The notes beneath the pieces were generated by a model. The model worked only from the letters and a program-made list of their open reading frames with translations. It did no database searches and had not been told where the DNA came from. Position numbers and translations under genes: made by a program. A stretch of DNA of 64,000 bases from the NCBI RefSeq assembly GCF_055900595.2, contig NZ_CM148325.1; one strand, 5' to 3'. Shown here piece after piece: positions 1 to 33,196 of the stretch (position 1 is its first letter; the number at the start of each line of letters is the position of its first letter).

Positions 1-1513
<1,513 letters not shown>

Positions 1514-1518
1514 GGCGA

Positions 1519-2418
1519 TCACTCCATCATCTTCTCAATCGGCAGGACCAGGATTGAACTGGCACCCAGCGCTTTCAGTTTTTCCATGGTTTCCCAGAAC
1601 AGGGTTTCGCTGCTGACCATGTGCATCGCTACGCGTTGTTGGTCACCCGCCAGCGGCAGAATAGTTGGGCGTTCGGCACCTGGCAGCAGGGCGATGACTT
1701 CATCCAGACGTTCGGTCGGTGCGTGCATCATGATGTATTTTGATTCGCGCGCCTGGATCACACCCTGAATACGGGTCAGCAGTGTGTCGATCAGTTGCTG
1801 TTTGGATTCTTCCATTTCGCCATCGCGTTGTATCAGGCAGGCTTTCGAGCGATAGATAACTTCGACTTCGCGCAGGCCGTTAGCTTCCAGCGTGGCACCG
1901 GTGGAAACCAGATCGCAAATCGCATCCGCCAGTCCGGCACGCGGGGCGACTTCAACAGAACCGTTCAGTAAGCAGGATTTAAAAGAGATACCTTTCTGGT
2001 CGAGATAACGCTTGAGCAGGTGAGGATAAGAGGTGGCGATACGTTTACCGTTTAAGGAGAGCGGGCCATCCCAGGCTTCATCAACCGGCGTTGCCAGTGA
2101 AAGTCGGCAGCCGCCGAAATCCAGACGACGCAGGGTAAAGTAGCGTGGATCTTCACCCTGGGCGCGGCGGTTAAGCAGCTCTTCTTCCAGCACGTTTTCG
2201 CCGATAATCCCAAGGTCTACCACGCCGTCCATTACCAGACCGGGAATGTCGTCGTCACGCACGCGCAGAATATCAATCGGCATGTTTTCTGCCATCGCGA
2301 TCAGGCGCTGGGTGTGAAGATTGATTTTAATGCCACAGCGCGCCAGCAATTCGCGTGAGTCATCACTTAAACGGCCGGATTTCTGCATAGCTATGCGTAA
2401 ACGAGTGTTGTCTGTCAT
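1519..2418 (-). CDS. hisG: ATP phosphoribosyltransferase HisG
   Basis: Translation [25 protein letters not shown]... (299 aa); ORF-track start at 2457 is an upstream extension. Confidence 0.95.
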
Positions 2419-2464
2419 TTTCTTATTCCTCTTTAAACCTGTCTGAACCGTTATCAACCGCGCA

Positions 2465-2503
2465 ATAAAAAAGCCCCCGGAAGGTGATCTTCCGGGGGCT
2501 TTC
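2465..2503 (-). terminator. his attenuator terminator (Rho-independent hairpin plus U-run)
   Basis: Minus strand reads GAAAGCCCCCGGAAGATCACCTTCCGGGGGCTTTTTT between hisL and hisG. Confidence 0.9.
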
Positions 2504-2563
2504 TCATGCGTTCATGCACCACTGGAAGATCTGAATGTCTTCCAGCACACATCGCCTGAAAGA

Positions 2564-2614
2564 CTAGTCAGGATGATGGTGATGATGGTGGTGTTTAAAT
2601 TGAACGCGTGTCAT
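2564..2614 (-). CDS. hisL: his operon leader peptide
   Basis: Minus strand ATGACACGCGTTCAATTTAAACACCACCATCATCACCATCATCCTGACTAG = MTRVQFKHHHHHHHPD, seven consecutive His codons. Confidence 0.95.
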   Translation of the reverse strand: MTRVQFKHHHHHHHPD

Positions 2615-2837
2615 AAAAGTCTCTGTGAATGTTTATTCAACTGATGTCTTTTAACCTAAACCACTTTCACGTTAGAAAGCAAGGGCTTTTTTATATATTT
2701 TATGGCGATGGATTTGTTTAATGAATGAGCGGGGAAAGGAGGGGCCTGGAGTGACTATGTTAGAAAAGTAATCGTGAAAATATGTCTTTAAAATCCTCAA
2801 GAACATTGTGTTCTGTAACTAAAGTGGGCTTTGTTCC

Positions 2838-2935
2838 TGCCGGATGCGGCGTGAATGCCTTATCAGGTCTACAAATGTTGCCTAAATTCAATATATTGAT
2901 GTTTTGTAGGACTGATAAGCGGAGCGCATCAGGCA
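2838..2935. repeat. REP/BIME-type palindromic element pair
   Basis: GCCGGATGCGGCGTGAATGCCTTATCAGGTCTACA and inverted partner TGTAGGACTGATAAGCGGAGCGCATCAGGC. Confidence 0.7.
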
Positions 2936-3038
2936 ATGGTATATTTGCTAACAGTTTCGATTTCATTCATAGAATGAATTGTCAGTTTTGATACGCTAGC
3001 GTAGCCTTATAGATCTAAGGTGTATCAGGAGATAACGG

Positions 3039-3863
3039 ATGAAAAAGGTCGCAATTGTCGGGTTAGGGTGGTTAGGCATGCCGCTGGCGATGTCACTTTC
3101 AGCGCGAGGCTGGCAAGTCACCGGGAGTAAAACCACACAAGATGGTGTCGAAGCGGCCCGAATGAGTGGCATTGATAGCTATCTGCTTCGCATGGAGCCT
3201 GAGTTAGTTTGCGATTCTGACGATCTGGATGCCCTGATGGATGCCGACGCGCTGGTCATTACGCTTCCGGCACGTCGTAGCGGCCCCGGCGATGAGTTCT
3301 ATTTACAAGCGGTACAAGAGTTAGTGGATAGCGCGCTGGCCCATCGTATTCCCCGAATTATTTTTACCAGCTCAACGTCTGTCTATGGCGACGCGCAAGG
3401 CACGGTGAAAGAAACCACCCCGCGTAATCCGGTAACCAACAGTGGACGAGTATTAGAAGAACTCGAAGACTGGCTGCACAATTTACCCGGTACTTCGGTC
3501 GATATTCTGCGTCTTGCGGGGCTGGTCGGACCGGGACGTCATCCCGGACGCTTCTTTGCCGGAAAAACCGCGCCTGATGGTGAACATGGTGTTAATTTAG
3601 TCCATTTAGAAGATGTTATTGGCGCTATCACTCTGTTGTTACAGGCACCTAAAGGCGGACACATCTATAATATATGTGCGCCAGCTCACCCTGCGCGTAA
3701 TGTTTTCTATCCGCAGATGGCCCGTTTACTGGGGCTGGAACCTCCGCAGTTCAGAAATAGTCTGGACAGCGGCAAAGGTAAGATTATTGATGGCAGTCGG
3801 ATTTGTAATGAACTGGGGTTTGAATACCAGTATCCCGATCCGCTGGTAATGCCGCTGGAGTAA
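3039..3863 (+). CDS. yeeZ: NAD-dependent epimerase/dehydratase-family protein YeeZ
   Basis: 274-aa ORF MKKVAIVGLGWLGMPLAMSL... with Rossmann GxGxxG N-terminus. Confidence 0.9.
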   Translation: MKKVAIVGLGWLGMPLAMSLSARGWQVTGSKTTQDGVEAARMSGIDSYLLRMEPELVCDSDDLDALMDADALVITLPARRSGPGDEFYLQAVQELVDSALAHRIPRIIFTSSTSVYGDAQGTVKETTPRNPVTNSGRVLEELEDWLHNLPGTSVDILRLAGLVGPGRHPGRFFAGKTAPDGEHGVNLVHLEDVIGAITLLLQAPKGGHIYNICAPAHPARNVFYPQMARLLGLEPPQFRNSLDSGKGKIIDGSRICNELGFEYQYPDPLVMPLE

Positions 3864-3908
3864 ACGATCACGCCAGCAGGACGCCGCATGCACTGCAAGG
3901 GGGCGTGT

Positions 3909-4838
3909 ATGAAACCACTGCTGGATGTGTTGATGATCCTCGATGCCTTAGAAAAAGAAGGCAGTTTTGCGGCGGCGTCAGCCAAACTCTACAAGACGCC
4001 GTCCGCTCTGAGTTACACCGTTCACAAGCTGGAAAGCGACCTTAATATTCAATTGCTTGATCGTAGCGGTCACCGCGCTAAATTCACCCGCACCGGAAAA
4101 ATGTTATTAGAGAAAGGGCGGGAAGTTCTGCATACCGTGCGGGAACTGGAAAAGCAGGCGATCAAACTGCATGAAGGCTGGGAAAACGAGCTGGTGATTG
4201 GCGTGGACGACACGTTTCCTTTTTCTCTGCTTGCGCCACTGATTGAAGCTTTTTATCAACATCATAGCGTGACGCGCCTGAAGTTTATCAATGGCGTACT
4301 CGGTGGTTCCTGGGATGCCCTGACTCAGGGGCGAGCGGATATTATTGTTGGCGCGATGCATGAGCCACCATCTTCCAGTGAGTTTGGTTTCTCGCGGTTG
4401 GGCGATCTGGAACAAGTCTTTGCGGTAGCGCCTCATCATCCGTTAGCCCTGGAAGAAGAACCGTTAAACCGTCGTATCATTAAGCGATATCGGGCGATTG
4501 TGGTGGGGGACACTGCGCAGGCCGGCGCTTCTACGGCCTCACAACTTCTCGACGAACAAGAAGCCATTACCGTCTTCGATTTTAAAACCAAGCTAGAGCT
4601 GCAAATTAGCGGCCTCGGCTGCGGCTATTTACCCCGTTATCTGGCGCAACGTTTTCTCGATAGTGGCGCGTTAATCGAGAAGAAAGTGGTCGCCCAAACT
4701 CTCTTTGAATCCGTCTGGATTGGCTGGAACGAACAGACCGCAGGGCTTGCCAGCGGCTGGTGGCGAGATGAAATTTTAGCAAATAGTGCGATCGCCGGTG
4801 TTTATGCAAAATCTGATGACGAAAAATCAGCCATTTAA
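3909..4838 (+). CDS. yeeY: LysR-family transcriptional regulator YeeY
   Basis: Translation MKPLLDVLMILDALEKEGSFAAASAKLYKTPSALSYTVHKLE... (HTH then LysR substrate domain); ORF-track start at 3888 is an extension. Confidence 0.9.
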   Translation: MKPLLDVLMILDALEKEGSFAAASAKLYKTPSALSYTVHKLESDLNIQLLDRSGHRAKFTRTGKMLLEKGREVLHTVRELEKQAIKLHEGWENELVIGVDDTFPFSLLAPLIEAFYQHHSVTRLKFINGVLGGSWDALTQGRADIIVGAMHEPPSSSEFGFSRLGDLEQVFAVAPHHPLALEEEPLNRRIIKRYRAIVVGDTAQAGASTASQLLDEQEAITVFDFKTKLELQISGLGCGYLPRYLAQRFLDSGALIEKKVVAQTLFESVWIGWNEQTAGLASGWWRDEILANSAIAGVYAKSDDEKSAI

Positions 4839-5104
4839 AGAAAAATTATTATGACAAGCCTCTCATTCTCTTGTCATTTCCCCCCCATTTAGGCACAATG
4901 CGCCGCTGTCAAAAAATGACTAAAAACCGACGTTTCATCAGCGTCGGTTATTTTTTGCTTCAAACCAATCATTCATACCAAGAGGCCGGGCTTCGTACCG
5001 GATAGATATTTACTAAAAATCGACAGTTGTTGTCGCTGAGGAATCCAAAAAAATGGGGCAATTTTTTGCTTACGCGACGGTTATCACCGTAAAGGAGAAT
5101 GACC

Positions 5105-6463
5105 ATGTCGCATAACGTTACTCCAAACACCTCTCGCGTGGAATTGCGTAAAACGCTTACGTTAGTTCCGGTTGTAATGATGGGTCTTGCCTATATGCAG
5201 CCGATGACGCTGTTTGATACTTTTGGTATCGTTTCAGGCCTCACGGATGGTCATGTGCCGACAGCCTATGCGTTCGCATTGATTGCGATCCTGTTTACGG
5301 CTCTGAGCTACGGGAAGCTGGTTCGCCGCTATCCTTCTGCTGGCTCTGCATATACTTACGCCCAGAAATCCATTAGCCCGACTGTCGGCTTTATGGTGGG
5401 TTGGTCTTCTCTGCTCGACTATCTGTTCGCGCCGATGATCAACATTCTGCTGGCGAAAATCTATTTTGAAGCTCTGGTGCCTTCCATCCCATCGTGGATG
5501 TTTGTGGTGGCGCTGGTGGCCTTTATGACCGCCTTTAACCTGCGTAGTCTGAAATCCGTAGCGAACTTCAACACTGTAATCGTCGTGTTGCAGGTAGTGC
5601 TGATCGCGGTGATTCTGGGCATGGTTGTTTATGGCGTATTTGAAGGTGAAGGCGCTGGTACGCTGGCGAGCACTCGTCCGTTCTGGTCTGGCGATGCGCA
5701 TGTTATCCCGATGATTACCGGGGCGACAATCCTGTGCTTCTCCTTTACCGGCTTTGACGGCATCAGCAACCTGTCGGAAGAAACCAAAGATGCAGAGCGC
5801 GTGATCCCGCGTGCGATTTTCCTGACCGCGCTGATTGGCGGCATGATCTTCATCTTTGCAACTTACTTCCTGCAGCTGTACTTCCCGGATATCTCTCGCT
5901 TTAAAGATCCGGATGCGTCACAGCCTGAAATCATGCTGTACGTGGCAGGTAAAGCATTCCAGGTTGGTGCGCTGATCTTCTCCACCATTACCGTACTGGC
6001 GTCCGGTATGGCGGCGCACGCAGGTGTTGCGCGTCTGATGTACGTAATGGGTCGTGACGGCGTGTTCCCGAAAAGCTTCTTCGGTTATGTACACCCGAAA
6101 TGGCGTACTCCGGCGATGAACATCATCCTGGTTGGCGCGATTGCCCTGCTGGCAATCAACTTCGACCTGGTAATGGCTACGGCGCTGATTAACTTTGGTG
6201 CGTTGGTGGCGTTCACCTTCGTTAACCTGTCGGTCATCTCGCAGTTCTGGATCCGTGAGAAGCGTAACAAGACGCTGAAAGATCACTTCCAGTATCTGTT
6301 CCTGCCGATGTGTGGTGCGCTGACCGTTGGTGCGCTGTGGGTTAACCTGGAAGAAAGCTCAATGGTTCTGGGTCTGATCTGGGCGGCTATCGGTCTGATT
6401 TACCTGGCTTGCGTCACCAAGAGTTTCCGTAACCCGGTTCCGCAGTACGAAGACGTAGCGTAA
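5105..6463 (+). CDS. plaP: Putrescine importer PlaP (APC-family permease)
   Basis: 452-aa multi-[39 protein letters not shown]... Confidence 0.9.
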
Positions 6464-6482
6464 TCATCTTTTGTAATAATAA

Positions 6483-6517
6483 ACCGGAGTCGAATGAATA
6501 TTTGGCTCCGGTTTTTT
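6483..6517 (+). terminator. Rho-independent terminator after plaP
   Basis: AACCGGAGTCGAATGAATATTTGGCTCCGG followed by TTTTTTTATT. Confidence 0.75.
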
Positions 6518-6641
6518 TATTCTTTTTTATCGACATCCTCATTAATAACCATTTGTTCTAATTTAGAGAATTTGGTTATTGGTCTGCATTCCACCAGTCA
6601 TGAATAATTTCCCTATTAACATTCATCTGGTTAATTAATTT

Positions 6642-7700
6642 ATGTTTTCAATGATATTAAGCGGGCTAATTTGTGGTGCTCTGCTGGGATTTGTCATGCA
6701 GCGTGGGCGTTTTTGCCTGACAGGTGGTTTTCGCGATATGTATCTCGCGAAAAATAATCGCATGTTTTACGCCTTGCTGATTGCAATTTCGGTACAAAGT
6801 GTGGGGGTTTTTGCGTTAATTCAGGCGGGCCTACTGACTTACGAAGCCGGGGCGTTCCCGTGGCTTGGTACTGTTATAGGTGGGTATATCTTCGGGCTGG
6901 GAATTGTTCTGGCGGGTGGATGTGCCACCGGGACCTGGTATCGCGCGGGTGAGGGATTGATCGGCAGTTGGATCGCGCTTTTCACTTATATGGTGATGAG
7001 TGCGGTGATGCGTTCTCCACATGCCAGTGGTTTAAATCAAACCTTGCAGCACTACAGTACTGAACATAACTCTATTGCTGAGACTTTTAATTTGTCTGTG
7101 TGGCCGTTGGTTGCCGTTTTGCTGGTGATAACGCTCTGGGTGGTGATGAAAGAGTTGAAGAAGCCAAAACTCAAAGTCGCGACCTTACCGCCGCGCCGAA
7201 CCGGGATCGCTCATATTCTGTTTGAAAAACGCTGGCATCCCTTTGTCACTGCTGTACTCATCGGTTTGATTGCGCTTTTAGCCTGGCCCCTGAGTGAAGC
7301 AACCGGACGCATGTTTGGGTTAGGAATCACTTCCCCAACGGCCAATATTCTGCAATTTCTGGTCGCGGGTGACGTGAAATACATTAACTGGGGCGTTTTC
7401 CTGGTGTTAGGGATCTTCGTGGGGTCATTTATTGCAGCCAAAGCGAGCCGTGAGTTCCGCGTTCGCGCAGCTGATGCACAAACAACATTACGTAGCGGGT
7501 TAGGTGGTGTACTGATGGGCTTCGGTGCCAGTATTGCAGGTGGTTGCTCTATCGGTAATGGACTGGTTATGACTGCAATGATGACCTGGCAGGGCTGGAT
7601 TGGCCTTGTATTTATGATTCTCGGAGTCTGGACTGCGTCCTGGCTTGTGTATGTTCGACCGCAGCGTAAGGCGCGACTGGCAACTGCTGCGGCAAATTAA
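6642..7700 (+). CDS. yeeE: Thiosulfate transporter YeeE/TsuA
   Basis: 352-aa polytopic membrane ORF with paired Cys-containing repeats; immediately followed by yeeD. Confidence 0.9.
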   Translation: MFSMILSGLICGALLGFVMQRGRFCLTGGFRDMYLAKNNRMFYALLIAISVQSVGVFALIQAGLLTYEAGAFPWLGTVIGGYIFGLGIVLAGGCATGTWYRAGEGLIGSWIALFTYMVMSAVMRSPHASGLNQTLQHYSTEHNSIAETFNLSVWPLVAVLLVITLWVVMKELKKPKLKVATLPPRRTGIAHILFEKRWHPFVTAVLIGLIALLAWPLSEATGRMFGLGITSPTANILQFLVAGDVKYINWGVFLVLGIFVGSFIAAKASREFRVRAADAQTTLRSGLGGVLMGFGASIAGGCSIGNGLVMTAMMTWQGWIGLVFMILGVWTASWLVYVRPQRKARLATAAAN

Positions 7701-7713
7701 GTAAGGTGTAAAG

Positions 7714-7941
7714 ATGGCGATTAAAAAGCTGGATGTGGTGACGCAGGTCTGTCCGTTTCCACTCATAGAAGCAAAAGCAGCACTGGCAGAAATGGCCAGC
7801 GGCGATGAGTTGGTAATTGAGTTTGATTGCACCCAGGCAACTGAAGCAATCCCACAGTGGGCGGCAGAAGAAGGACATGCCATCACCGATTATCAGCAGA
7901 TTGGCGATGCAGCGTGGAGCATCACCGTTCAAAAAGCCTGA
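7714..7941 (+). CDS. yeeD: TusA-like sulfurtransferase YeeD/TsuB
   Basis: 75-aa ORF with the TusA CPxP motif (VCPFPLIEAK). Confidence 0.9.
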   Translation: MAIKKLDVVTQVCPFPLIEAKAALAEMASGDELVIEFDCTQATEAIPQWAAEEGHAITDYQQIGDAAWSITVQKA

Positions 7942-7952
7942 CTCAACATTGT

Positions 7953-7976
7953 CCTCCGCCGTACCAGCGGCGGAGG
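7953..7976. terminator. Bidirectional hairpin between convergent yeeD and sbcB
   Basis: CCTCCGCCGTACCAGCGGCGGAGG perfect stem-loop. Confidence 0.6.
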
Positions 7977-7983
7977 CTTCAAA

Positions 7984-9411
7984 TTAGACGATCTCTTCCG
8001 CGTACTGCCAAAGCGCTTTTAACAGTGCCACTTTCTCTTTGTCATCGGCATATTGTTGTGCCAGCATCTGCAATTCATCTGCATAACCCTGTAAAAACTC
8101 TGGCGTGAAGACCTGGCGGCGGTGCTCCAGCCAGCGTTGCTGCTCGGCATAATCCAGCGTCCCCGGGAAGTTGCGCGCCCGATAATTGAACAACAGCTTT
8201 TCAATCCGTTTATCGACAAAAGTGATATCCAGTGCCGGTAAATTACGCGGCTCGGTTTCCAGCACAATTTTCATTGCTGCACGATCGGCGTCACTGAAAA
8301 AGCCGTTATAAAGCTGTGCATCCACGTTATCTGAAGGCGTAAACGGTTCGGCTTCCGCGAATATCGCCACCACTTTTTCGCGCACTTGCGGATTTTCACG
8401 CAGAATTTTCAGGTTATTGAGGCAATGCTGACGATTAATTCCCAGTCGGTCGGCATCTTCCGGGCGTAGCGTATTCGCCTGGGCCAGCACCGGACATTTA
8501 TTGATATGCACCAGCTTAACCGGAACGGCGGCGTTATCGCCAAGATCGGTTTTTGCGGTATATAAACGCTCGCGCAATGTGTCGCTATCCAGTTCCAGTA
8601 ATGGCGAAATGTCTCCTGCCAAATCCACCATAATTACGGCATTGCGATTTTCAGGATGCCACGCCAGCGGTGCCACCCAGCTGGTATTGCCGCGCCATGC
8701 CCCAAACATTCCGGAAACGTGCACCAGGGGTTTCATCTGCGGAACATCAATCAACGCCATCAGTTTGTGTTTATTACGATGGGTAAAGAGATATTCAAAC
8801 AGGCGTGGCTGACGCGTTTTTACCAGTTTCGCCATCGCAATAGTGGCGTACACATCAGCCATCGCATCGTGGGCGTTGCTATGTTCAATTCCATTCGCTT
8901 TGGTTAAATGCTCAAGGCGAAAGCTCGGTAGACCGTCATCATTTTCAGGCCAGTTTATTCCTTCCGGGCGCAGGGCATAACAGGCACGCATAACATCCAG
9001 TAAATCCCAGCGCGAGTTATCATGCTGCCAGCTCCAGGCGTAAGGATCGTAGAAATTACGATAAAAAACGTTGCGTGTGACTTCGTCGTCGAAACGCACA
9101 TTGTTGTAGCCCAGAATACAGGTCTTCGGTACGTTAAAAAGCGAGTGAATACGGGCGGCAAACGCGGCTTCGTTTTCTCCTTTCGCCCGTGCTTCCTGCG
9201 GGGTAATACCGGTAATTAATACTGCTCCAGGCTGGGGCAAATAGTCATCCGCGGGCTTGCAGTAAAAGACTTCGGGTTCGCCGATGACATTGAATTCGCT
9301 ATCGGTGCGAATGGCTGCGAACTGTGCAGGGCGATCTAACGCGGGGTGCGTGCCAAAGGTTTCGTAATCGTGAAACAAAAAGGTAGATTGTTGCTTACCG
9401 TCATTCATCAT
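7984..9411 (-). CDS. sbcB: Exodeoxyribonuclease I
   Basis: Translation MMNDGKQQSTFLFHDYETFGTHPALDRPAQFAAIRTD... (475 aa, DEDDh exonuclease); ORF-track start at 9483 is an extension. Confidence 0.95.
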   Translation of the reverse strand: MMNDGKQQSTFLFHDYETFGTHPALDRPAQFAAIRTDSEFNVIGEPEVFYCKPADDYLPQPGAVLITGITPQEARAKGENEAAFAARIHSLFNVPKTCILGYNNVRFDDEVTRNVFYRNFYDPYAWSWQHDNSRWDLLDVMRACYALRPEGINWPENDDGLPSFRLEHLTKANGIEHSNAHDAMADVYATIAMAKLVKTRQPRLFEYLFTHRNKHKLMALIDVPQMKPLVHVSGMFGAWRGNTSWVAPLAWHPENRNAVIMVDLAGDISPLLELDSDTLRERLYTAKTDLGDNAAVPVKLVHINKCPVLAQANTLRPEDADRLGINRQHCLNNLKILRENPQVREKVVAIFAEAEPFTPSDNVDAQLYNGFFSDADRAAMKIVLETEPRNLPALDITFVDKRIEKLLFNYRARNFPGTLDYAEQQRWLEHRRQVFTPEFLQGYADELQMLAQQYADDKEKVALLKALWQYAEEIV

Positions 9412-9613
9412 TAGGTTAAATCCGTTATTTCTGCTGTCTGCCAGAGTATCAAATATCACCGTGCTAATCAGCTTTAGCGCCACAATTTGGCAGCTAGTGG
9501 CAACAGATCATGTCAGATAAAAATGAGAGGGTAGTCACATTTTCTTGCACTTTATTCCAGCCAGTTCATAAGTATTTCCGTAAAAAGAACAGCTATTTGA
9601 AACTCCTGAGGGT

Positions 9614-10786
9614 TTGCTGTTGAAACGCCGTCTTATTATTGCTGCTTCTTTGTTCGTTTTTAACTTATCGTCTGGTTTTGCGGCGGAAAACATTCCTTTT
9701 TCACCTCAGCCTCCAGAGATTCATGCCGGGTCCTGGGTACTGATGGATTACACCACCGGACAGATCCTCACCGCGGGTAATGAGCATCAACAGCGCAATC
9801 CCGCCAGCCTGACAAAGCTGATGACGGGCTATGTCGTGGATCGCGCTATCGATAGTCATCGCATTACGCCAGACGATATTGTCACCGTAGGGCGCGATGC
9901 GTGGGCGAAAGATAATCCGGTGTTTGTCGGTTCTTCACTGATGTTTTTGAAAGAGGGCGATCGCGTATCGGTACGTGATTTAAGCCGTGGTTTAATTGTG
10001 GATTCCGGAAATGACGCTTGTGTTGCTCTGGCTGACTATATTGCCGGTGGGCAACGGCAGTTTGTTGAAATGATGAACAACTATGCCGAGAAGCTGCATC
10101 TCAAGGATACGCATTTTGAAACAGTGCATGGTCTGGATGCACCTGGCCAGCATAGCTCGGCTTATGATTTAGCTGTGCTTTCTCGCGCTATCATCCACGG
10201 CGAGCCCGAGTTTTATCATATGTACAGTGAGAAAAGTCTCACCTGGAACGGTATCACCCAGCAAAACCGTAACGGATTATTGTGGGATAAAACCATGAAT
10301 GTTGACGGCCTGAAAACGGGTCATACTTCTGGTGCCGGGTTTAATCTCATTGCTTCGGCTGTAGATGGGCAGCATCGTCTCATTGCAGTGATAATGGGGG
10401 CTGACAGTGCAAAAGGTCGTGAGGAAGAGGCAAGAAAATTACTGCGTTGGGGGCAACAAAACTTTACTACGGTGCAAATTTTGCACCGTGGGAAAAAGGT
10501 CGGAACGGAACGCATCTGGTATGGCGATAAAGAAAATATCGACCTGGGAACGGAACAAGAGTTCTGGATGGTGCTACCGAAAGCCGAAATTCCACATATC
10601 AAAGCCAAATATACCCTTGATGGTAAAGAACTCACCGCGCCAATTAGCGCCCATCAGCGGGTAGGGGAAATTGAACTTTACGACCGTGATAAACAGGTGG
10701 CGCACTGGCCGCTGGTTACCCTGGAATCTGTCGGGGAAGGCAGCATGTTTTCTCGCCTGAGTGATTATTTCCACCATAAGGCCTGA
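9614..10786 (+). CDS. dacD: D-alanyl-D-alanine carboxypeptidase DacD (PBP6b)
   Basis: Signal peptide then SLTK (SxxK) active-site motif and SGN; start codon choice uncertain by a few codons. Confidence 0.9.
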   Translation: MLLKRRLIIAASLFVFNLSSGFAAENIPFSPQPPEIHAGSWVLMDYTTGQILTAGNEHQQRNPASLTKLMTGYVVDRAIDSHRITPDDIVTVGRDAWAKDNPVFVGSSLMFLKEGDRVSVRDLSRGLIVDSGNDACVALADYIAGGQRQFVEMMNNYAEKLHLKDTHFETVHGLDAPGQHSSAYDLAVLSRAIIHGEPEFYHMYSEKSLTWNGITQQNRNGLLWDKTMNVDGLKTGHTSGAGFNLIASAVDGQHRLIAVIMGADSAKGREEEARKLLRWGQQNFTTVQILHRGKKVGTERIWYGDKENIDLGTEQEFWMVLPKAEIPHIKAKYTLDGKELTAPISAHQRVGEIELYDRDKQVAHWPLVTLESVGEGSMFSRLSDYFHHKA

Positions 10787-10872
10787 CCTTTCTTTTGCAG
10801 CAGACTGGCAGGAGTGCGAGTCTGCTCGCATAATCAACACTCATTCCTTGTGGTTTTAATATTGCAACTATA

Positions 10873-10888
10873 CTGTATATAAAAACAG
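10873..10888 (+). promoter_or_regulatory. LexA (SOS) box upstream of sbmC
   Basis: CTGTATATAAAAACAG matches CTGT-N8-ACAG about 20 bp upstream of the sbmC start. Confidence 0.8.
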
Positions 10889-10904
10889 TAATAATGGAGG
10901 CGTC

Positions 10905-11378
10905 ATGAACTACGAGATTAAGCAGGAAGATAAACGTACCGTTGCAGGTTTCCATCTCGTTGGCCCGTGGGAACAGACGGTAAAGAAAGGTTTTGAGCAG
11001 TTGATGATGTGGGTAGATAGCAAAAATATTGTGCCGAAGGAGTGGGTTGCTGTCTATTACGACAATCCGGATGAAACACCCGCCGAAAAATTACGCTGCG
11101 ACACCGTCGTGACGGTACCGAATAACTTTACGCTCCCCGAAAACAGTGAGGGCGTCATTCTGACAGAAATTTCAGGTGGTCAATATGCGGTGGCGGTGGC
11201 TCGTGTAGTCGGTGATGATTTTGCTAAACCCTGGTATCAGTTCTTTAATAGCCTCTTGCAGGACAGTGCTTATGAAATGTTACCAAAGCCCTGCTTCGAG
11301 GTTTACTTGAACAATGGCGCGGAAGATGGGTACTGGGATATCGAAATGTATGTTGCGGTGCAGCCAAAACATCACTAA
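10905..11378 (+). CDS. sbmC: DNA gyrase inhibitor SbmC/GyrI
   Basis: 157-aa [36 protein letters not shown]... Confidence 0.92.
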
Positions 11379-11575
11379 TTCATCTCAGGGCGGTGTGTTG
11401 ACGCGAAGACCACTCTTTTTTTGAAAGCGAAAAGAGTAAGATGCGCCTTTCAATTTTTTCGCTCCTGCCGGGAAATTACACTGTTCCCGGTTTGTCCGTC
11501 GGATAATTCAGAGGCGCGCCTTCTGGCCGACAGATGAGTTATGAGCGCTTTTAATCTTCATTACGGAGTTTCTGC

Positions 11576-12634
11576 GTGCGTGCCGATAAGTCATTAAGCC
11601 CGTTTGAAATCCGGGTATACCGCCATTACCGCATTGTGCATGGTACTCGGGTCGCGCTGGCATTCCTGCTCACTTTTCTCATTATCCGCCTGTTTACTAT
11701 CCCGGAAAGCACCTGGCCGCTGGTCACCATGGTGGTGATTATGGGGCCAATCTCGTTCTGGGGGAACGTTGTCCCTCGCGCATTCGAACGTATTGGCGGT
11801 ACGGTGTTGGGGTCGATTTTAGGTCTTATCGCTCTGCAACTGGAGTTAATCTCGTTACCGCTGATGTTAGTCTGGTGCGCGGCGGCTATGTTTCTTTGCG
11901 GTTGGCTGGCGCTGGGCAAGAAACCGTATCAAGGTTTATTGATTGGGGTGACGCTGGCAATTGTTGTTGGTTCCCCGACAGGTGAAATTAATACGGCGTT
12001 ATGGCGAAGCGGCGATGTGATCCTCGGCTCTTTACTGGCAATGTTGTTTACCGGTATCTGGCCACAACGGGCGTTCATCCACTGGCGCATTCAACTGGCA
12101 AAAAGTCTGACCGAGTATAATCGGGTCTATCAATCTGCATTCTCACCGAACTTACTCGAACGCCCGCGTCTGGAAAGCCATCTACAAAAACTCCTGACCG
12201 ATGCCGTGAAAATGCGTGGGCTGATTGCGCCCGCCAGCAAAGAAACCCGTATTCCAAAATCGATATATGAAGGTATCCAGACCATTAATCGCAATCTGGT
12301 TTGTATGCTGGAGTTGCAAATCAATGCGTACTGGGCCACGCGCCCCAGCCATTTCGTGTTATTGAACGCGCAAAAACTTCGTGATACCCAGCATATGATG
12401 CAGCAAATACTGCTGAGCCTTGTTCATGCGCTGTACGAAGGTAATCCGCAGCCGGTTTTTGCCAATACGGAAAAATTGAACGATGCTGTGGAAGAGCTGC
12501 GTCAGTTGCTGAATAACCACCATGACCTGAAGGTTGTGGAAACACCAATCTATGGTTATGTGTGGCTGAACATGGAAACGGCACATCAGCTTGAGTTGCT
12601 ATCGAATCTGATTTGCCGGGCCTTGCGCAAATAA
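11576..12634 (+). CDS. yeeA: Inner-membrane protein YeeA (FUSC-like)
   Basis: 352-aa ORF with N-terminal TM helices; conserved position between sbmC and yeeX. Confidence 0.85.
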   Translation: MRADKSLSPFEIRVYRHYRIVHGTRVALAFLLTFLIIRLFTIPESTWPLVTMVVIMGPISFWGNVVPRAFERIGGTVLGSILGLIALQLELISLPLMLVWCAAAMFLCGWLALGKKPYQGLLIGVTLAIVVGSPTGEINTALWRSGDVILGSLLAMLFTGIWPQRAFIHWRIQLAKSLTEYNRVYQSAFSPNLLERPRLESHLQKLLTDAVKMRGLIAPASKETRIPKSIYEGIQTINRNLVCMLELQINAYWATRPSHFVLLNAQKLRDTQHMMQQILLSLVHALYEGNPQPVFANTEKLNDAVEELRQLLNNHHDLKVVETPIYGYVWLNMETAHQLELLSNLICRALRK

Positions 12635-12805
12635 TTCCTGAACTTCAGAATCATCTTGCTGCTGCTTCGATTCAGCAAGGATAAAGGGTATGATAGTGAA
12701 AAGGGATAAAAGCATTGTCATCTGCGGCAGCTATGAGTAATGTTGGCCCTAACGAATAGCGGTTGCTTAAACGAATCCGACTCTCACATTATCAGGGGTA
12801 TAAAA

Positions 12806-13135
12806 ATGGAAACTACCAAGCCTTCATTCCAGGACGTACTGGAATTTGTTCGTCTGTTCCGTCGTAAGAACAAACTGCAACGTGAAATTCAGGACGTTGA
12901 GAAAAAGATCCGTGACAACCAGAAGCGCGTCCTGTTGCTGGACAACCTGAGCGATTACATCAAGCCAGGGATGAGCGTTGAAGCAATCCAGGGCATCATC
13001 GCCAGCATGAAAGGTGACTATGAAGATCGCGTTGACGATTACATCATCAAAAATGCCGAGCTCTCCAAAGAACGCCGCGATATCTCCAAAAAGCTGAAAG
13101 CTATGGGCGAAATGAAAAACGGCGAAGCGAAGTAA
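12806..13135 (+). CDS. yeeX: YeeX (UPF0265/DUF496) protein
   Basis: Translation [55 protein letters not shown]... (109 aa); ORF-track start at 12740 is an extension. Confidence 0.9.
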
Positions 13136-13148
13136 TTCCCGTTTTATT

Positions 13149-13177
13149 CAATGAGGGTTGCTCGGCAACCCTCATTG
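13149..13177 (+). terminator. Hairpin after yeeX
   Basis: CAATGAGGGTTGC-TCG-GCAACCCTCATTG perfect 13-bp stem. Confidence 0.6.
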
Positions 13178-13235
13178 CTCATTGATTCTTATCTGTGTAT
13201 CACCGTCATCATTCTCATCTGAGAACCAATCGAAA

Positions 13236-13440
13236 TTAACAACAGCCTTCTTCTGTATGCAGCAAGGCAAAAAGTTCTGTAACTCCATTGTTATTAACTG
13301 CACTGGTTACTAACACGTTGTGCGCTCCAGCTTCCCGTAACCAACTTTTCACCAAAGATATTTGTTCCATGCTGGCTAAATCTGCTTTGGTTACTACTCC
13401 AATGACCGGGTGATTCATGGCCCGGTAGGGCGTTTTTACC
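13236..13440 (-). pseudogene. C-terminal remnant of a small GTPase (EutP/PduV-like), truncated upstream by the IS66 remnant
   Basis: Minus-strand tail ...NHPVIGVVTKADLASMEQISLVKSWLREAGAHNVLVTSAVNNNGVTELFALLH; no P-loop region remains. Confidence 0.4.
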
Positions 13441-13484
13441 TCTAATTCCTGCTTCAGCGCTGAGATTCCTGCTTGTTGCCGGAA

Positions 13485-13649
13485 AAGCAGGCACCTGCCG
13501 TCTGAACGGTATCGATCCGGAAGCGTATCTGCGCCATATTCTGAGCATACTGCCGGAATGGCCCTCCAACCGTGTTGACGAACTCCTGCCATGGAACGTA
13601 GTTCTCACCAATAAATAAGCGTCAATACGGTGCTCCGTTGACGCTTACT
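13485..13649 (+). mobile_element. IS66-family remnant: 3' end of tnpC plus terminal inverted repeat
   Basis: Plus frame AGTCRLNGIDPEAYLRHILSILPEWPSNRVDELLPWNVVLTNK* parallels the C-terminus of the intact IS66 TnpC at 24160-25731; ends in ...CGCTTAC, the complement of the GTAAGCG IR. Confidence 0.7.
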
Positions 13650-13846
13650 TTAATCCGTTTTCTGAGCTTAGATTTTTCTGTTCCTACCCAGACCGTGGAT
13701 TTGGAATTCATTTTTTGTCAGGTCAATGCTAATCGTTAAAACGGCCATAACGCACCTCCACTGGAAGGTTTATCAGTAATATCCTACCGTTGCTTCATGG
13801 TCGGGGCGTCCATTCCATTATTATCGGTTTTCCTTTCTGTTTATAA

Positions 13847-13878
13847 ATGAAAACGCCAGCTGTATTCAGGCTGGCGTC
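13847..13878 (-). terminator. Rho-independent terminator downstream of yeeW
   Basis: Minus strand GCCAGCCTGAATACAGCTGGC followed by GTTTTCATTT. Confidence 0.5.
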
Positions 13879-14032
13879 AGGGGAAATGAAGCCTGTTGAG
13901 TGAGATTCACCGCTTCTGGTGCAGAAGCTGCAGATGGCGCAGGGTAAGGACATCTTCTCTTGCCTGCTTAATACAGGACAACAGTGCTGTTTCTGTGGTT
14001 AATGGCACTATACCCTGCATCACTGCATTGTC

Positions 14033-14227
14033 TTACAGCAACTGGTGAGGGCTGGCATAAGTTGCCGGTGTTTCGGTAGAGTCACGGTCATCCACCACGC
14101 GGAGTGAATAACCTTTTTCAGCGGCCTTATTAATCAGTTCAGTGATATTAACACCATCAATGTCAACGACAATGTGCCCCATATCCAGCGCCTGTACGTT
14201 AACGCTGTCGGCTTCCAGTGTCATCAT
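14033..14227 (-). CDS. yeeW: CP4-44-type prophage protein YeeW
   Basis: 64-aa ORF MMTLEADSVNVQALDMGHIVVDIDGVNITELINKAAEKGYSLRVVDD...; its start overlaps the cbtA stop. Confidence 0.8.
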   Translation of the reverse strand: MMTLEADSVNVQALDMGHIVVDIDGVNITELINKAAEKGYSLRVVDDRDSTETPATYASPHQLL

Positions 14228-14597
14228 TTCGCCTCCGGATACTTACCCAGGGTAATGTTATTTACCGTTCTGTAATTGTCGCGGGTCATCAGGCCGGTCG
14301 CCCTGCGAGCCCGGAGGATATCGATGCTGTTTATTAACTGAGAGCGGGTACAGGCGCTGAATCCCGGCTGGTCGGTAGCACCAGCGCGTATTTTTCCACG
14401 AGAAAGTTCACCGCATCACACAGTGAAATGCCTGCCTCAATATGCTGCTCAATCACACGTTCATCGGCAAAAGGTGTGTCATTCAGTGTGAGGCCATAGT
14501 GCTGGTCCAGCAGTCGGGACAGCAGTATCTGCCAGATTTCAACAGGAGACGGGCGAGAACTGGTCGCCTGCCCGGGTAATACAGGTAATGTTTTCAT
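14224..14597 (-). pseudogene. cbtA: Type IV toxin CbtA (YeeV), frameshifted
   Basis: N-terminus [36 protein letters not shown]... intact to ...VEKYALV, then frame is lost near 14395; the C-terminus ...NSIDILRARRATGLMTRDNYRTVNNITLGKYPEAK reads in an adjacent frame. Confidence 0.8.
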
Positions 14598-14685
14598 ACT
14601 GAAGATTTTCCTGATATGCAGATATAAAAATGGAAAAGTGGCGTGGTGAAAACACCAGGCCGTAGCAGAAGGCTATTCTGGAGAG

Positions 14686-15054
14686 TTAATTTTTCATTTC
14701 GGGCGTCGGATAAACAGCCAGATAAACGTAACCACAACTGCTGAGGGTATCGGCTTTGCAGGTCAGCCCTTTTGCATACAGCGTGACGGTATGCTGATGG
14801 CGGGGATTCAGTTCACCGCTGGTGAGCATGAGTTCCAGTTGTTTCATCAGCAGCGGAAAGGCCTGGTCCAGGTGGTACGCATCTGCATCGCTGAACAGGC
14901 CTCTGATACCGGCGCGGTCGGCAAGGTAATGCAACCGGTTACCCTCCTGCACCAGACGTGCCCCGAAACAGGGCGTCACGGTGCAGGGCAGCCCCCACCA
15001 GGGGCGGTCGTGATTGTCGTCGGGAAGTGTTGTCCCGGGGAGTGTGTCTGACAC
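14686..15054 (-). CDS. cbeA: Antitoxin CbeA (YeeU)
   Basis: 122-aa ORF MSDTLPGTTLPDDNHDRPWWGLPCTVTPCFGARLVQEGNRLHYLADRAGI... Confidence 0.9.
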   Translation of the reverse strand: MSDTLPGTTLPDDNHDRPWWGLPCTVTPCFGARLVQEGNRLHYLADRAGIRGLFSDADAYHLDQAFPLLMKQLELMLTSGELNPRHQHTVTLYAKGLTCKADTLSSCGYVYLAVYPTPEMKN

Positions 15055-15127
15055 GATAAAATCCTTACAGAAAATCGGCTAAGAATGGTCCGGTAGTGGC
15101 GATAATTCTGCTCATCAGAATTCCCAC

Positions 15128-15349
15128 TCAGTTCAGGGTGACGCTCATCAGCCGGACATACGGACCAAAACTGTCCTTACGGCGTTCAGCAAACACGGCC
15201 AGCACACCGGGAATATCCTGCACTTCACGACCGGTATACGCTTCAGCACTGCCGTGCCAGCGGTATTTACCGGTACAGAACGGAAAAAGACGGGATGTCG
15301 GATGTTGTTGGTGAATACGCATGGCTTCACCACGGGTGATAATTTTCAT
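15128..15349 (-). CDS. yeeT: YeeT (DUF987) prophage protein
   Basis: 73-aa ORF MKIITRGEAMRIHQQHPTSRLFPFCTGKYRWHGSAEAYTGREVQDIPGVL... Confidence 0.85.
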   Translation of the reverse strand: MKIITRGEAMRIHQQHPTSRLFPFCTGKYRWHGSAEAYTGREVQDIPGVLAVFAERRKDSFGPYVRLMSVTLN

Positions 15350-15411
15350 AATGGGATACCTCTGAAGACAGAAGATAAAAGTGAAAACAGGTGTGATGTG
15401 GTTGTGAAGGG

Positions 15412-15903
15412 TTAAAGCAGACCATGTTCGGCAAAGGAGAAAACCTGGTTGCCACCGACTATCAGATGGTCCGGCACCCGGATATCCACCAGGCCCAGTG
15501 CCTGTACCAGACGTTCCGTGATAAGGCGGTCTGCCTTACTGGGTGTGACTTCACCGGAGGGGTGATTGTGTGCCAGCACCACGGCAGCGGCATTGTGGTA
15601 CAGGGCGCGTTTAATCACTTCCCGGGGATGGACTTCCGTGCGGTTGATGGTGCCGGTAAAGAGGGTTTCACCGGCAATCAGTTGATTCTGGTTATTCAGA
15701 TACAGCACCCGGAATTCTTCACGCTCCAGTCCCGCCATGTTCAGAATCAGCCATTCCCGTGCTGCACGGGTGGAGGTGAAGGCCACGCCGGGTTCATGAA
15801 GATGGCGGTCCAGGGTTTTCAGGGCCCGTTGAATGAGGCTGCGCTCGCCGGGCGTCATCTCTCCGGGCAGAAAGGAAAGTTGTTGCATTGTGCTTCTCTC
15901 CAT
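15412..15903 (-). CDS. yeeS: RadC-like JAB-domain protein YeeS
   Basis: JAMM motif HNHPSGEVTPSKADRLIT; exact start (15903 or a downstream Met) uncertain. Confidence 0.85.
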   Translation of the reverse strand: MERSTMQQLSFLPGEMTPGERSLIQRALKTLDRHLHEPGVAFTSTRAAREWLILNMAGLEREEFRVLYLNNQNQLIAGETLFTGTINRTEVHPREVIKRALYHNAAAVVLAHNHPSGEVTPSKADRLITERLVQALGLVDIRVPDHLIVGGNQVFSFAEHGLL

Positions 15904-16383
15904 TCAGTCGATGATGCGCATAATGGCGCTGCATTCCGGATGCTGCAGGGCGTAATCCCGCAACCGGTAATAATGGACCGTCATGGCATAATTCTCCGTA
16001 CGACAGGCATGATGACTGTACGTCATCAGACAGGCGGCAATACCGGCGGCTTCCGGGCTCATTTCTGCGCGGTTACCGTTCATGGCATTGAACAGTACCC
16101 ATGTTTCGTCATCATCGTCATCCGGTTCGGGTGCCATAAATGCCCCGCCGTTGTTCAGGGTGTACAGATTCCAGATACCACCGCAGTAGTCTTCGCACAG
16201 ACGGTCCATCCAGCCGAAGACACGGGGCTCCAGGGTCACCCACTGTGGAATGAGGCCAAAATGCTGCGGCCAGAAGCTGATGCGCTGTTCATCAGGGACG
16301 AGGCTGGCAACCAACTGAGGCGGATTATTCTCTGGTGTTGTAGCTGAATAAATTGTGGGGGTATTCTGAGAAACGGTTTTCAT
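15904..16383 (-). CDS. Antirestriction protein, KlcA/ArdB family (YfjX-like)
   Basis: 159-aa ORF ...NPPQLVASLVPDEQRISFWPQHFGLIPQWV...EPDDDDDETWVLFNAMNGNRAEMS... Confidence 0.85.
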   Translation of the reverse strand: MKTVSQNTPTIYSATTPENNPPQLVASLVPDEQRISFWPQHFGLIPQWVTLEPRVFGWMDRLCEDYCGGIWNLYTLNNGGAFMAPEPDDDDDETWVLFNAMNGNRAEMSPEAAGIAACLMTYSHHACRTENYAMTVHYYRLRDYALQHPECSAIMRIID

Positions 16384-16464
16384 GAGATAACTCTTTAAAT
16401 AACAAATAAATGTGTGTTTTTCAGGAACGAAAGCTGAATGATTCCCTCACTCAGGGAAACGGCA

Positions 16465-17286
16465 TCAGCGCAGGCTCTCCAGCATCGTTTCTGCCATCAC
16501 CCACAATGCGCGATTGAGCTTAATGTCGGTATCAATGCTGTGAATGGCCCGGGTATGGATACGTTTTCCTTTTGCACTGCGACCGGAAATCCCGCCTTTC
16601 AGCATATTCTCCTGGATGGTCTGATATGCGCTCCACAGGTCCTTACCGTAATCCTCCCGGCGTCGCGGCGTCAGAATGTCGGCGGTGGTGACGGGCTGAT
16701 GTTCGTCACCATAACGGTAAGTCAGTGCCGCCTGTGCCAGCGCCTGGCGTGCCGGTGGCGGCAGGACCAGAGACTGCATGGCATCACGCTTCTCCTCTAT
16801 CCGGTCAAACACGCCCACCACCTCGTAAGCCCCTTCGATAACTTTCTCCACTACATTTCCCCGGTGTGGAACACGCACTTCCCCCAGAGACTGGCCACAG
16901 ACGCACCCGTTCTGGCAGACGAACCTGAAGTAACCCGGCAGCATCTGGTAGCTGGAGGTACCGTCATGAGAGTTGAGCAGAATAATTTCAGGGACATGTT
17001 CTCCGTTTATCTCTCCGGCCCGCCGCAGACGCAGCATGTGTTTTGTGTATCCCCGGCGGCCCGGGTCGCGCACACGGGTCTGGCAGGCGAAGAACGGCTG
17101 AAAGCCTTCCCGCTGCAGATTTTCCAGGACGGTAATGGTGGGAATGTACGCATACCGTTCACTGCGGGAGGTGTGCCGGTCTTCCCCAAAAATACTGGGT
17201 ACATGGCGTATCAGTTCTTCATGTGTCAGCGGACGGTCACGGCGTATCTGGTTTGCAGCATAACCAAAACGACTTGCTAATCGCAT
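16465..17286 (-). CDS. YfjQ/YafZ-like island backbone protein (DUF932-type)
   Basis: 273-aa ORF MRLASRFGYAANQIRRDRPLTHEELIRHVPSIFGEDRHTSRSERYAYIPT...; same position relative to the antirestriction gene as yfjQ in CP4-57. Confidence 0.7.
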   Translation of the reverse strand: MRLASRFGYAANQIRRDRPLTHEELIRHVPSIFGEDRHTSRSERYAYIPTITVLENLQREGFQPFFACQTRVRDPGRRGYTKHMLRLRRAGEINGEHVPEIILLNSHDGTSSYQMLPGYFRFVCQNGCVCGQSLGEVRVPHRGNVVEKVIEGAYEVVGVFDRIEEKRDAMQSLVLPPPARQALAQAALTYRYGDEHQPVTTADILTPRRREDYGKDLWSAYQTIQENMLKGGISGRSAKGKRIHTRAIHSIDTDIKLNRALWVMAETMLESLR

Positions 17287-17506
17287 ACTTTGCTCCTTAT
17301 CGGTGGTTAAGATTTACTGGTGCAATAAATGAAAAAAGCCGCGTCTCCCGGAGAAGACGCGGCCTGACGGGTGAAATGAATAAGGTTTATTGTCTGAGAG
17401 GCCTTTCACTGGCGAGCCACGCATTAAGCGGCTTTCCGGTAACAATGGCTGGGGCTGTATTTACCTTTGATATTAATAATGTGCAGAGAAACGCATGGTT
17501 TACTCC

Positions 17507-17917
17507 TTAGATTTTAAGTTTGTCCTGGGCTACAACGACAGGTTTTCCGGATGTGTCGATGACTCCTACCGTCGGTACGCCATTTTTGATTTCGAAGAAC
17601 GGTTTGTTGCTACCTGAGCACAGTTGATTGTCCCCGTATTCAATCATTTGTGCTTTCCCGGTTTTCAGGTTAACTACCGAGACAGTGTAGTCGTAGCACC
17701 AGGCACCACCACGTTCAAGCACGAAAACATAGCTGTTATCTTTATAGTTGAACTGATTCTTTGTCTGGCAATTCATACCGTCAATTTCGGTACAGGAAAA
17801 CGCTTCTGTAGTATTAACGTATTTGATGTTATTTGGCAGTTTTACTTGTTTCGCAGTAGCGAAGACAGAGAACAGAATAGTTACAGCAACGAGTAAAGTT
17901 TTGATAAAAGTTTTCAT
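17507..17917 (-). CDS. Small secreted protein, unknown function (signal peptide, 4 Cys)
   Basis: 136-aa ORF MKTFIKTLLVAVTILFSVFATAKQ...; AT-rich relative to neighbours; plausible RBS. Confidence 0.6.
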   Translation of the reverse strand: MKTFIKTLLVAVTILFSVFATAKQVKLPNNIKYVNTTEAFSCTEIDGMNCQTKNQFNYKDNSYVFVLERGGAWCYDYTVSVVNLKTGKAQMIEYGDNQLCSGSNKPFFEIKNGVPTVGVIDTSGKPVVVAQDKLKI

Positions 17918-17932
17918 GATAGACTCCTTAAA

Positions 17933-18421
17933 TTAGTTAACCGCAGCTACGTAGTTTTTCACCAGATACGCGAATTCATGCACGCCAATTTCACCGAACC
18001 AAACCAGGTAGGCCGGGTCATCTAAACCAAAGTAACGGTAGCCAACAACTTCATGGGTTTTTGGGTTATAGAGTGTTACGATAAAGTCCCAGCCGCAGGT
18101 ATTGGCTTTGCAACCGTCGCCCTGGAACCAGACTGTACCGTTAATGTTTACTGGCGTGATACCTCCACCAGGGCCATCCATATAGCCGCCTTTACCGAAC
18201 ATGCCGCTCAGTCCGACCGGTTTTAATGCTTTGTCGATAGCGGCTTTGTAGGTAGCGTCACCTTCGTACAACTCGTACGTTGATGGACACGCTCCAGGTT
18301 GTTCAGCCCAGGCTTCCGGGTTACAACTAAGAGCTTGTTTTACGGTAGCCGCTTCTGCGTTAAAGTTAAAGCCCGTGAACAGAACCGCCAGAAATAACAT
18401 AAGGGTATGTAAACGTTTCAT
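17933..18421 (-). CDS. Secreted protein with an Ivy-like C-K-x3-C loop (possible periplasmic lysozyme-inhibitor-like protein)
   Basis: From internal Met: MKRLHTLMLFLAVLFTGFNFNAEA... with GDGCKANTCGWDFIV; ORF-track start at 18724 is an implausible 100-aa extension. Confidence 0.55.
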   Translation of the reverse strand: MKRLHTLMLFLAVLFTGFNFNAEAATVKQALSCNPEAWAEQPGACPSTYELYEGDATYKAAIDKALKPVGLSGMFGKGGYMDGPGGGITPVNINGTVWFQGDGCKANTCGWDFIVTLYNPKTHEVVGYRYFGLDDPAYLVWFGEIGVHEFAYLVKNYVAAVN

Positions 18422-18718
18422 TGTAAATATTCTTCCGTTGTAAATGGCGCTGGAAAATTTCTCATCAGTGAAACCTTCCGGAAGTTTCCCCCCCTTGTAT
18501 GATGTATATCGCCAGTATTTTATTTCATCCCGGCTGTAATTTTTATATTCCCCGGCACGTGCAATAACGCTGACCAGAGATATAAGGCTCATTAATAACT
18601 TTACAGGTAATTTCATAATTAAATTTCCAGTGAGTGAATTGACAGGTGAGGGGTAAAACTTTCTCTCAGGTAATATATATCTGAAAATATTTTCAATAAC
18701 ACCAGACAGGAAAAACAC

Positions 18719-18748
18719 CACCACAGGCGGTGGCGTTTCTTTGGGGCG
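18719..18748 (-). terminator. Rho-independent terminator downstream of the patatin gene
   Basis: Minus strand CGCCACCGCCTGTGGTGGTG followed by TTTTTCC, directly after the stop at 18752. Confidence 0.6.
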
Positions 18749-18751
18749 TCT

Positions 18752-23117: not shown

Positions 23118-23169
23118 TATTTAACCTTCCTAAGACGCATTTTCATGACAACCACGGAGGAGGTCATTT

Positions 23170-23250
23170 ACTACAAACGATCGTTTATAACGATCGATAT
23201 GATAGTAACGATCGATGTATTCTATTAACTTGAGAAACACAACGCAAGGG
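23170..23250 (-). promoter_or_regulatory. Putative promoter with three clustered GATC (Dam) sites; candidate phase-variation switch
   Basis: Minus strand TTGCGT-17 bp-TAGAAT, then CGATCG boxes at plus 23179, 23192 and 23210 within imperfect AACGATCG(T/A)T repeats, about 60-100 nt upstream of the dynamin start. Confidence 0.45.
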
Positions 23251-25731: not shown

Positions 25732-25750
25732 ATCCTCACTTTACAACGGG

Positions 25751-26098
25751 TTATATGCGGATTCCAGCGCGTTCCGTTCGTTTCGGGTGCTTCCAGTTGA
25801 TACCTTCAAGAAGCATGGATAACTGAGCCGGAGTAAGGTGCACCTTGCCGTCACGGGTGACTGGCCAGACGAAGCGGCCCCGCTCCAGGCGTTTGGTGAA
25901 GAGGCACAGTCCGTCACTGTCAGCCCACAACACTTTTATCTGGTCACCCCGGCGTCCGCGGAAGATGAACAGGTGTCCGGAGAACGGGTCATCCTTCAGG
26001 ACGTTCTGAACTTTTGATGCCAGGCCGTTAAAGCCATTTCGCATATCGGTGATACCTGCAACCAGCCAGATACGCGAACCTGCAGGGAGAGATATCAT
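25751..26098 (-). CDS. tnpB: IS66 Orf2 (TnpB)
   Basis: 115-aa ORF MISLPAGSRIWLVAGITDMRNGFNGLASKVQNVL... Confidence 0.9.
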   Translation of the reverse strand: MISLPAGSRIWLVAGITDMRNGFNGLASKVQNVLKDDPFSGHLFIFRGRRGDQIKVLWADSDGLCLFTKRLERGRFVWPVTRDGKVHLTPAQLSMLLEGINWKHPKRTERAGIRI

Positions 26099-29680: not shown

Positions 29681-31638
<1,958 letters not shown>

Positions 31639-33118: not shown

Positions 33119-33196
33119 GGGGGATAACAGGCAGCAGAGCGCCGCCGGCAGGCCGGAGATTGCGTCTGCTGTGGGCGAAGGGTTAGTGGTTAAAAA

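Follow-up and report, generated by a model that had tools for sequence, protein, structure and literature searches.

The interval between hisL and yeeZ in the DNA analyzed here, a 64,000-nucleotide stretch of an E. coli chromosome (referred to as the window), appears to be the ancestral, pre-insertion form of this locus in Escherichia. According to this reading, which we hold with a probability of roughly 90%, a K-12-type cassette carrying yefM and yoeB replaced ~205 bp of the interval inside E. coli. The polarity is argued by parsimony with four non-K-12 Escherichia genomes. Because sister Escherichia carry the same toxin-free spacer, the window presumably represents the ancestral state and K-12 the derived state, and the toxin-antitoxin pair is better described as "absent" than as "lost."

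In the window, the genes hisD-hisG-hisL on the minus strand are followed by yeeZ-yeeY-yoeI-plaP on the plus strand. The end of hisL and the start of yeeZ delimit an interval of exactly 424 bp (2615-3038), the same interval in which the original prediction noted the absence of a toxin-antitoxin module that K-12 carries between the his leader and yeeZ. The corresponding interval of K-12 (NZ_CP014270) is 867 bp long and does contain annotated yefM (252 nt, 83 aa) and yoeB (255 nt, 84 aa) genes, both in the orientation of yeeZ.

Neither coding sequence is detected by tblastn in the interval or in the remainder of the 64 kb, in agreement with that prediction. When K-12 YefM is searched against all six frames of the window, the best match (E = 0.27) lies elsewhere, and the value inside positions 2560-3060 is E = 383. 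The best YoeB match (E = 1.3) is a chance match inside yeeZ, and the value in the spacer is E = 62. The spacer yields no YefM/Phd-family antitoxin ORF of ~83 aa by tblastn or at Pfam cut-offs, and no YoeB/Txe toxin ORF of ~84 aa overlapping an antitoxin stop codon by tblastn. Moreover, the yefM operator motif TGTACA, which is present in the K-12 allele, has zero occurrences in 2615-3038. Alignment of the interval to K-12, proposed earlier as a check, matches only the flanks, which amount to 133 bp beside hisL and 77 bp beside yeeZ (Table 1). The additional claim that the interval contains no ORF of the right size is strictly incorrect, since mechanical ORFs of 69 and 68 aa exist, but neither resembles YefM or YoeB, and neither matches a Pfam family at its cut-off.

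Table 1. Features of the hisL-yeeZ region (positions in the window)
Feature	Position	Strand	Remarks
his operon leader/attenuator RNA	2465-2588	-	Rfam RF00514 His_leader, 131.6 bits versus gathering score 49; model positions 1-126 of 126
hisL leader peptide gene	2564-2614	-	MTRVQFKHHHHHHHPD; read from the sequence; identical M160133 stretch annotates the same coordinates
Left flank	2615-2751		Common to both alleles, with his promoter region; 98.5% to K-12 over 2615-2747
Allele-specific segment, ~205 bp	2752-2958		Occupies the place of the 657-bp yefM-yoeB cassette of K-12; boundaries +/- ~5 bp
Mechanical ORF, 68 aa	2760-2966	-	Passes through REPs
Mechanical ORF, 69 aa	2782-2991	+	Passes through REPs
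REP element 1 of BIME	2839-2872	+	3 mismatches to consensus GCCGGATGCGGCGTGAACGCCTTATCCGGCCTAC; chance expectation 0
Linker between REPs	2873-2905		With IHF-consensus-like site 2886-2901 (consensus match)
REP element 2 of BIME	2906-2935	-	2 mismatches to consensus GTAGGCCTGATAAGCGTAGCGCATCAGGCA; chance expectation 0; orientation opposite to REP 1
Right flank	2959-3038		Common to both alleles; 100% to K-12 over 2962-3038; invariant in four cassette-bearing alleles
yeeZ, SDR/epimerase-family oxidoreductase	3039-3863	+	274-aa ORF; Pfam PF01370 Epimerase/SDR, 2.5e-12

In an Rfam scan with permissive thresholds, His_leader exceeds its gathering threshold over the full model, and every other match falls below its own gathering score. 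A terminator scan of 2400-3200 returned nothing and missed even the known his attenuator, so that it carries no information about the spacer. The left flank contains the his promoter region, with putative hexamers on the minus strand (TTGCTT-17-TAGGTT at about 2652-2685). Homology in this flank reaches ~2751 once outgroups and other cassette-bearing alleles are compared. The allele-specific segment has a GC content of 38%, and its boundaries are uncertain by ~5 bp because of microhomology. The right flank comprises a palindrome, ATTCATTC-ATA-GAATGAAT, and the yeeZ ribosome-binding region, and a promoter-like CTAACA-16-TAGAAT (2948-2975, a consensus match only) straddles the right junction. The genome of M160133 is identical to the window over 2400-3300, and the yeeZ product has the accession WP_000754737.1 in both K-12 and M160133.

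As the original prediction proposed, the interval includes a REP/BIME pair. Two segments match REP consensus sequences, and they are mutually inverted, with inverted-repeat arms at 2859-2875/2903-2919 and 2838-2848/2925-2935 around a short linker. The 33-bp linker carries two overlapping matches, one per strand and each with one mismatch, to WATCAANNNNTTR, the IHF consensus. A site for IHF is predicted in the linker, and we provisionally call the element BIME-1-like (also RIP or RIB). Dispersed relatives are present, in that window positions 2834-2935 match other chromosomal sites with ~83% identity in many E. coli genomes, although the 64-kb window contains no second REP copy at three or fewer mismatches. 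BIMEs probably lie more often at 3' ends, whereas the one in the window resides between divergently transcribed genes.

The junctions were located by a base-by-base comparison of four cassette-bearing and five toxin-free alleles. The left junction is at 2751-2757 of the window, where all alleles share ...GGAGGGGGC(TA/CT)(A/G)GAG followed by the 4-nt microhomology GACT. The right junction, at 2954-2961, consists of an AACAG microhomology followed by the common palindrome ATTCATTCATAGAATGAAT. Between these junctions, the 657 bp of K-12 and the ~205 bp of the window have no detectable similarity. As judged from these alignments, the polymorphism is a swap of two unrelated segments, one of ~205 bp with a BIME and the other of 657 bp with the module, and neither a clean deletion nor an empty gap.

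Two observations concern the left part of the cassette. Each of the four cassette-bearing alleles has a palindrome, AGAGGAC-T-GTCCTCT, across its left junction (~643-665 of the K-12 locus, L001; left-junction region 2744-2757 in the window), and it is longer in K-12, where it reads GCTAAGAGGAC-T-GTCCTCTTAGC. The left arm belongs to the ancestral flank, and the first cassette bases form the right arm; the palindrome may reflect how the insertion took place, or it may have arisen by chance. In addition, the 149 bp from the left junction to yefM (L001 649-797; 401-549 in the loci L058, L059, and L060 of three other strains) form two deep haplotypes. K-12 is 88-89% identical to the three other strains in this stretch, versus 97-99% in yefM and yoeB and 98-100% in the flanks, and the stretch has no plasmid counterpart.

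Comparison across the family bears on which of the two segments is older. Scanning one genome per species for exact matches to the coding sequence of hisL gave 53 loci; E. fergusonii and the GTDB representative of E. coli lie outside this set, as the exact pattern did not retrieve them. HisG and YeeZ flank hisL throughout, and tblastn detects YefM or YoeB in none of these 53 Enterobacteriaceae loci. Since hisL and yeeZ are adjacent in every Enterobacteriaceae locus that has both genes, the site is indeed a conserved core position, as had been proposed. The spacer measures 160-178 bp in 42 of the 45 measurable loci from outside Escherichia. Four Escherichia genomes (E. albertii, Escherichia sp. 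E1V33, Escherichia sp. MOD1-EC7003, and E. coli E69) have spacers of 424-426 bp, and these are collinear with that of the window from end to end, BIME included, with a mean column identity of 96%.

We propose a scenario in three steps. A short spacer would have been the starting condition in the family, and it would have grown to ~425 bp, with the BIME, at the base of Escherichia. Subsequently, inside E. coli, the 657-bp yefM-yoeB cassette would have replaced ~205 bp of it. The interval in the window comprises the his promoter region, ~205 bp of noncoding DNA with one BIME (inverted REPs around an IHF-like site), and the upstream region of yeeZ, and it holds neither a toxin-antitoxin module nor a remnant of one. 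Given near-identical flanks and a location beside the his/O-antigen region, either allele could presumably move between lineages by homologous recombination.

Both alleles are common in E. coli. Our collection comprised 5,426 complete E. coli genomes, and the locus is present in 5,423. At least 80% of the diagnostic 241 bp of the window (2735-2975) is covered in 1,196 of the 5,426 (22%), with 95.5-100% identity, and 1,193 genomes cover at least 80% of positions 2400-3300 in one piece. Carriers of the window-type spacer include ATCC 8739, the BL21-derived T7 Express, and many O157:H7 strains. The K-12 cassette occurs in 4,218 genomes (78%). Together these essentially complementary sets account for 5,414 genomes, leaving about a dozen in other states, and the presence/absence polymorphism anticipated in the original prediction is thus evident within the species. 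The cassette occupies 4,225 places in its 4,218 genomes, and therefore extra K-12-type copies elsewhere in a genome are rare. This rarity makes it unlikely that the strain from which the window derives carries the cassette at another site, although a divergent pair of the YefM/YoeB family could lie outside the 64 kb. None of the plasmids of the collection has the cassette.

Three records deserve separate mention. The 649-bp spacer of HH97 (NZ_CP116409.1; L003 1325-1973) was considered as a third allele or evolutionary intermediate and rejected, as it has no intact ORF and interleaves cassette and BIME alleles on a fine scale; a mixed sample that yielded an artefactual consensus is the most likely explanation. 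MEI4BO-21 (NZ_CM149565.1) was likewise rejected as an outgroup. This record is labeled E. coli, but it has a 178-bp spacer, HisG and YeeZ that are 94% and 82% identical to the proteins of the window, and no yeeY, and it looks like an imported or foreign his-yeeZ segment whose spacer is of the type found in other genera. Finally, hisL of E. coli 2013C_3277 (L059 220-267) is annotated with 48 nt instead of 51 and a different leader-peptide accession. Going by the annotated length, this leader may have one histidine codon fewer.

Several other features of the window were noted. After sbcB, M160133 has a ~40.7-kb P22-like prophage that the window lacks; it carries genes for an integrase, a tailspike, and two tRNAs, as well as an IS1 insertion. 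Window positions 1-9392 and 9363-23280 match M160133 on either side of this prophage (sbcB is at 7984-9483, minus strand), and the 30-bp overlap at 9363-9392 is probably an att repeat. The window does encode a toxin-antitoxin pair of type IV, cbtA/cbeA, at ~14224-15054 in a CP4-44-like island. Other genes of this island are yeeS, yeeT, yeeW, one for antirestriction, and dynamin-like and patatin-like ones. In M160133, whose stretch is 100% identical, the annotation marks cbtA as frameshifted. An island of insertion-sequence debris at ~23000-42300, situated before cobUST-ldtA-tRNA-Asn-nac-cbl, includes fragments of IS66/ISCro1, IS100, ISL3, IS3, and IS4 and several pseudogenes, as seen in comparison with strain M3. 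A copy of IS1 is present at ~55059-55826.

From a K-12-centered view, it is natural to suppose that the lineage once had yefM-yoeB and lost it through a fresh deletion that left the sequence now seen as a scar, and the cassette is indeed present in 78% of E. coli genomes. However, 205 bp of unrelated sequence could not arise through a deletion, and E. albertii and two other Escherichia species have the segment in collinear form, together with its BIME. No remnant of yefM or yoeB is found in the window by tblastn or DNA comparison. We therefore regard a deletion as effectively refuted and extremely improbable. An assembly artefact, which might be suspected given that one record (HH97) is garbled at this site, is refuted still more decisively, with a probability close to nil, by the occurrence of the same spacer in 1,196 independent complete genomes and in sister species. 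Another proposal is that a hidden small gene or regulatory RNA, such as one of the ORFs of 68-69 aa, functionally replaces the module. The segment is conserved across Escherichia species, and there is a weak Rfam match to ES036 at 2873-2913. Yet this match scores 21.3 bits against a gathering score of 37.6, the ORFs pass through REP palindromes and reach no Pfam cut-off, and the segment is free of RefSeq annotation in M160133 and in the other toxin-free genomes listed. Moreover, the RNA fold z-score of the BIME (-2.1) is unremarkable and equals what a REP pair gives by itself. We consider a hidden gene very improbable.

A more serious alternative concerns the recent history of this strain. Its near ancestors may have had the cassette, with the toxin-free allele re-imported by homologous recombination, for example during exchange of the his/O-antigen region. 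Both alleles occur in strains of a single phylogroup (K-12 versus ATCC 8739 and BL21-type strains), and the flanks are near-identical between alleles. Iguchi et al. (2011) also describe exchange between lineages of the regions that flank the O-antigen cluster (PMC3158064). We judge re-import to be a realistic possibility that nevertheless has considerably less than an even chance of being correct.

As to the source of the inserted DNA, the K-12 cassette begins with ~150 bp of upstream DNA, continues through the yefM promoter/operator and the two genes, and stops 5 nt past the yoeB stop codon. This composition fits the minimal transferable module of Ramisetty et al., which has a promoter/operator and ORFs and lacks a terminator (PMC5120126). 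In the plasmid collection, Salmonella, Citrobacter, and E. marmotae plasmids of 130-170 kb match cassette positions 86-653 (operator through yoeB) with 81-86% identity. They rank just after the three best matches, which are mislabeled chromosome-sized records or fragments. Cassette positions 1-85 match nothing in the plasmid collection, and no donor was found there, the best plasmid relatives being those at 81-86%. Because the closest relatives outside E. coli chromosomes sit on large plasmids of Salmonella, Citrobacter, and E. marmotae, the cassette likely originated from a plasmid.

It is tempting to imagine that the BIME or the junction palindromes (AGAGGAC-T-GTCCTCT on the left and the palindrome of the right flank) served as target or facilitator for the capture of a plasmid-derived cassette extending from promoter to stop codon. 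If so, core spacers rich in REPs or hairpins might be general landing pads, which would explain why minimal toxin-antitoxin cassettes reside at fixed core positions. We view this idea as a long shot.

Several properties of the strain are predicted from the sequence of the window. It would lack, at this locus, both the ribosome-dependent mRNA interferase YoeB and the antitoxin YefM. For K-12, co-transcription of yeeZ with yefM-yoeB is regarded as likely (PMC5120126). In the window, yeeZ would be transcribed from its own upstream DNA and not, as is possible in K-12, by read-through from the yefM promoter. The his promoter, which lies in the common left flank, would be untouched by the replacement. 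More generally, yefM-yoeB is an accessory module and not a core pair of E. coli, and the arrangement in K-12 should not be taken as the default for this site. This is relevant to reasoning from K-12 deletion strains about chromosomal toxin-antitoxin modules and to comparisons of yeeZ expression between strains. The overall weight of these results is small, with the polarity being one mildly useful addition.

The polymorphism itself is already known and published. Iguchi et al. (2011) reported that yoeB and yefM are missing from the yeeZ-hisL spacer of O157:H7 Sakai, and that this spacer has REP sequences, with indels involving REPs (PMC3158064). The interval in the window resembles the Sakai spacer in the same absence and in its REPs. 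O157:H7 genomes match 2735-2975 over the full length with ~96% identity and so differ from the window by only a few percent of nucleotides. The ancestral state is left undiscussed in that study (PMC3158064), and what is added here is limited to an explicit polarity and to frequencies among 5,426 genomes. Fraikin et al., in a 2020 review (PMC7167474), point out that four reference E. coli strains have no conserved type II module in common. The yefM-yoeB locus of K-12 shares position and flanks with the window and differs in having the 657-bp cassette in place of ~205 bp of noncoding DNA with a BIME. The BIME, in turn, is like other BIME/REP elements of E. coli in having two inverted REPs of ~30-34 nt that are ~33 bp apart, with an IHF-consensus-like site between them. 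A similar case is ccdO157, located between folA and apaH, which Mine et al. (2009) reportedly found to be present in some E. coli strains and replaced by a short intergenic sequence in others. If so, both loci exemplify a chromosomal type II module that is present or replaced at a fixed core position, with different toxin families and at different sites.
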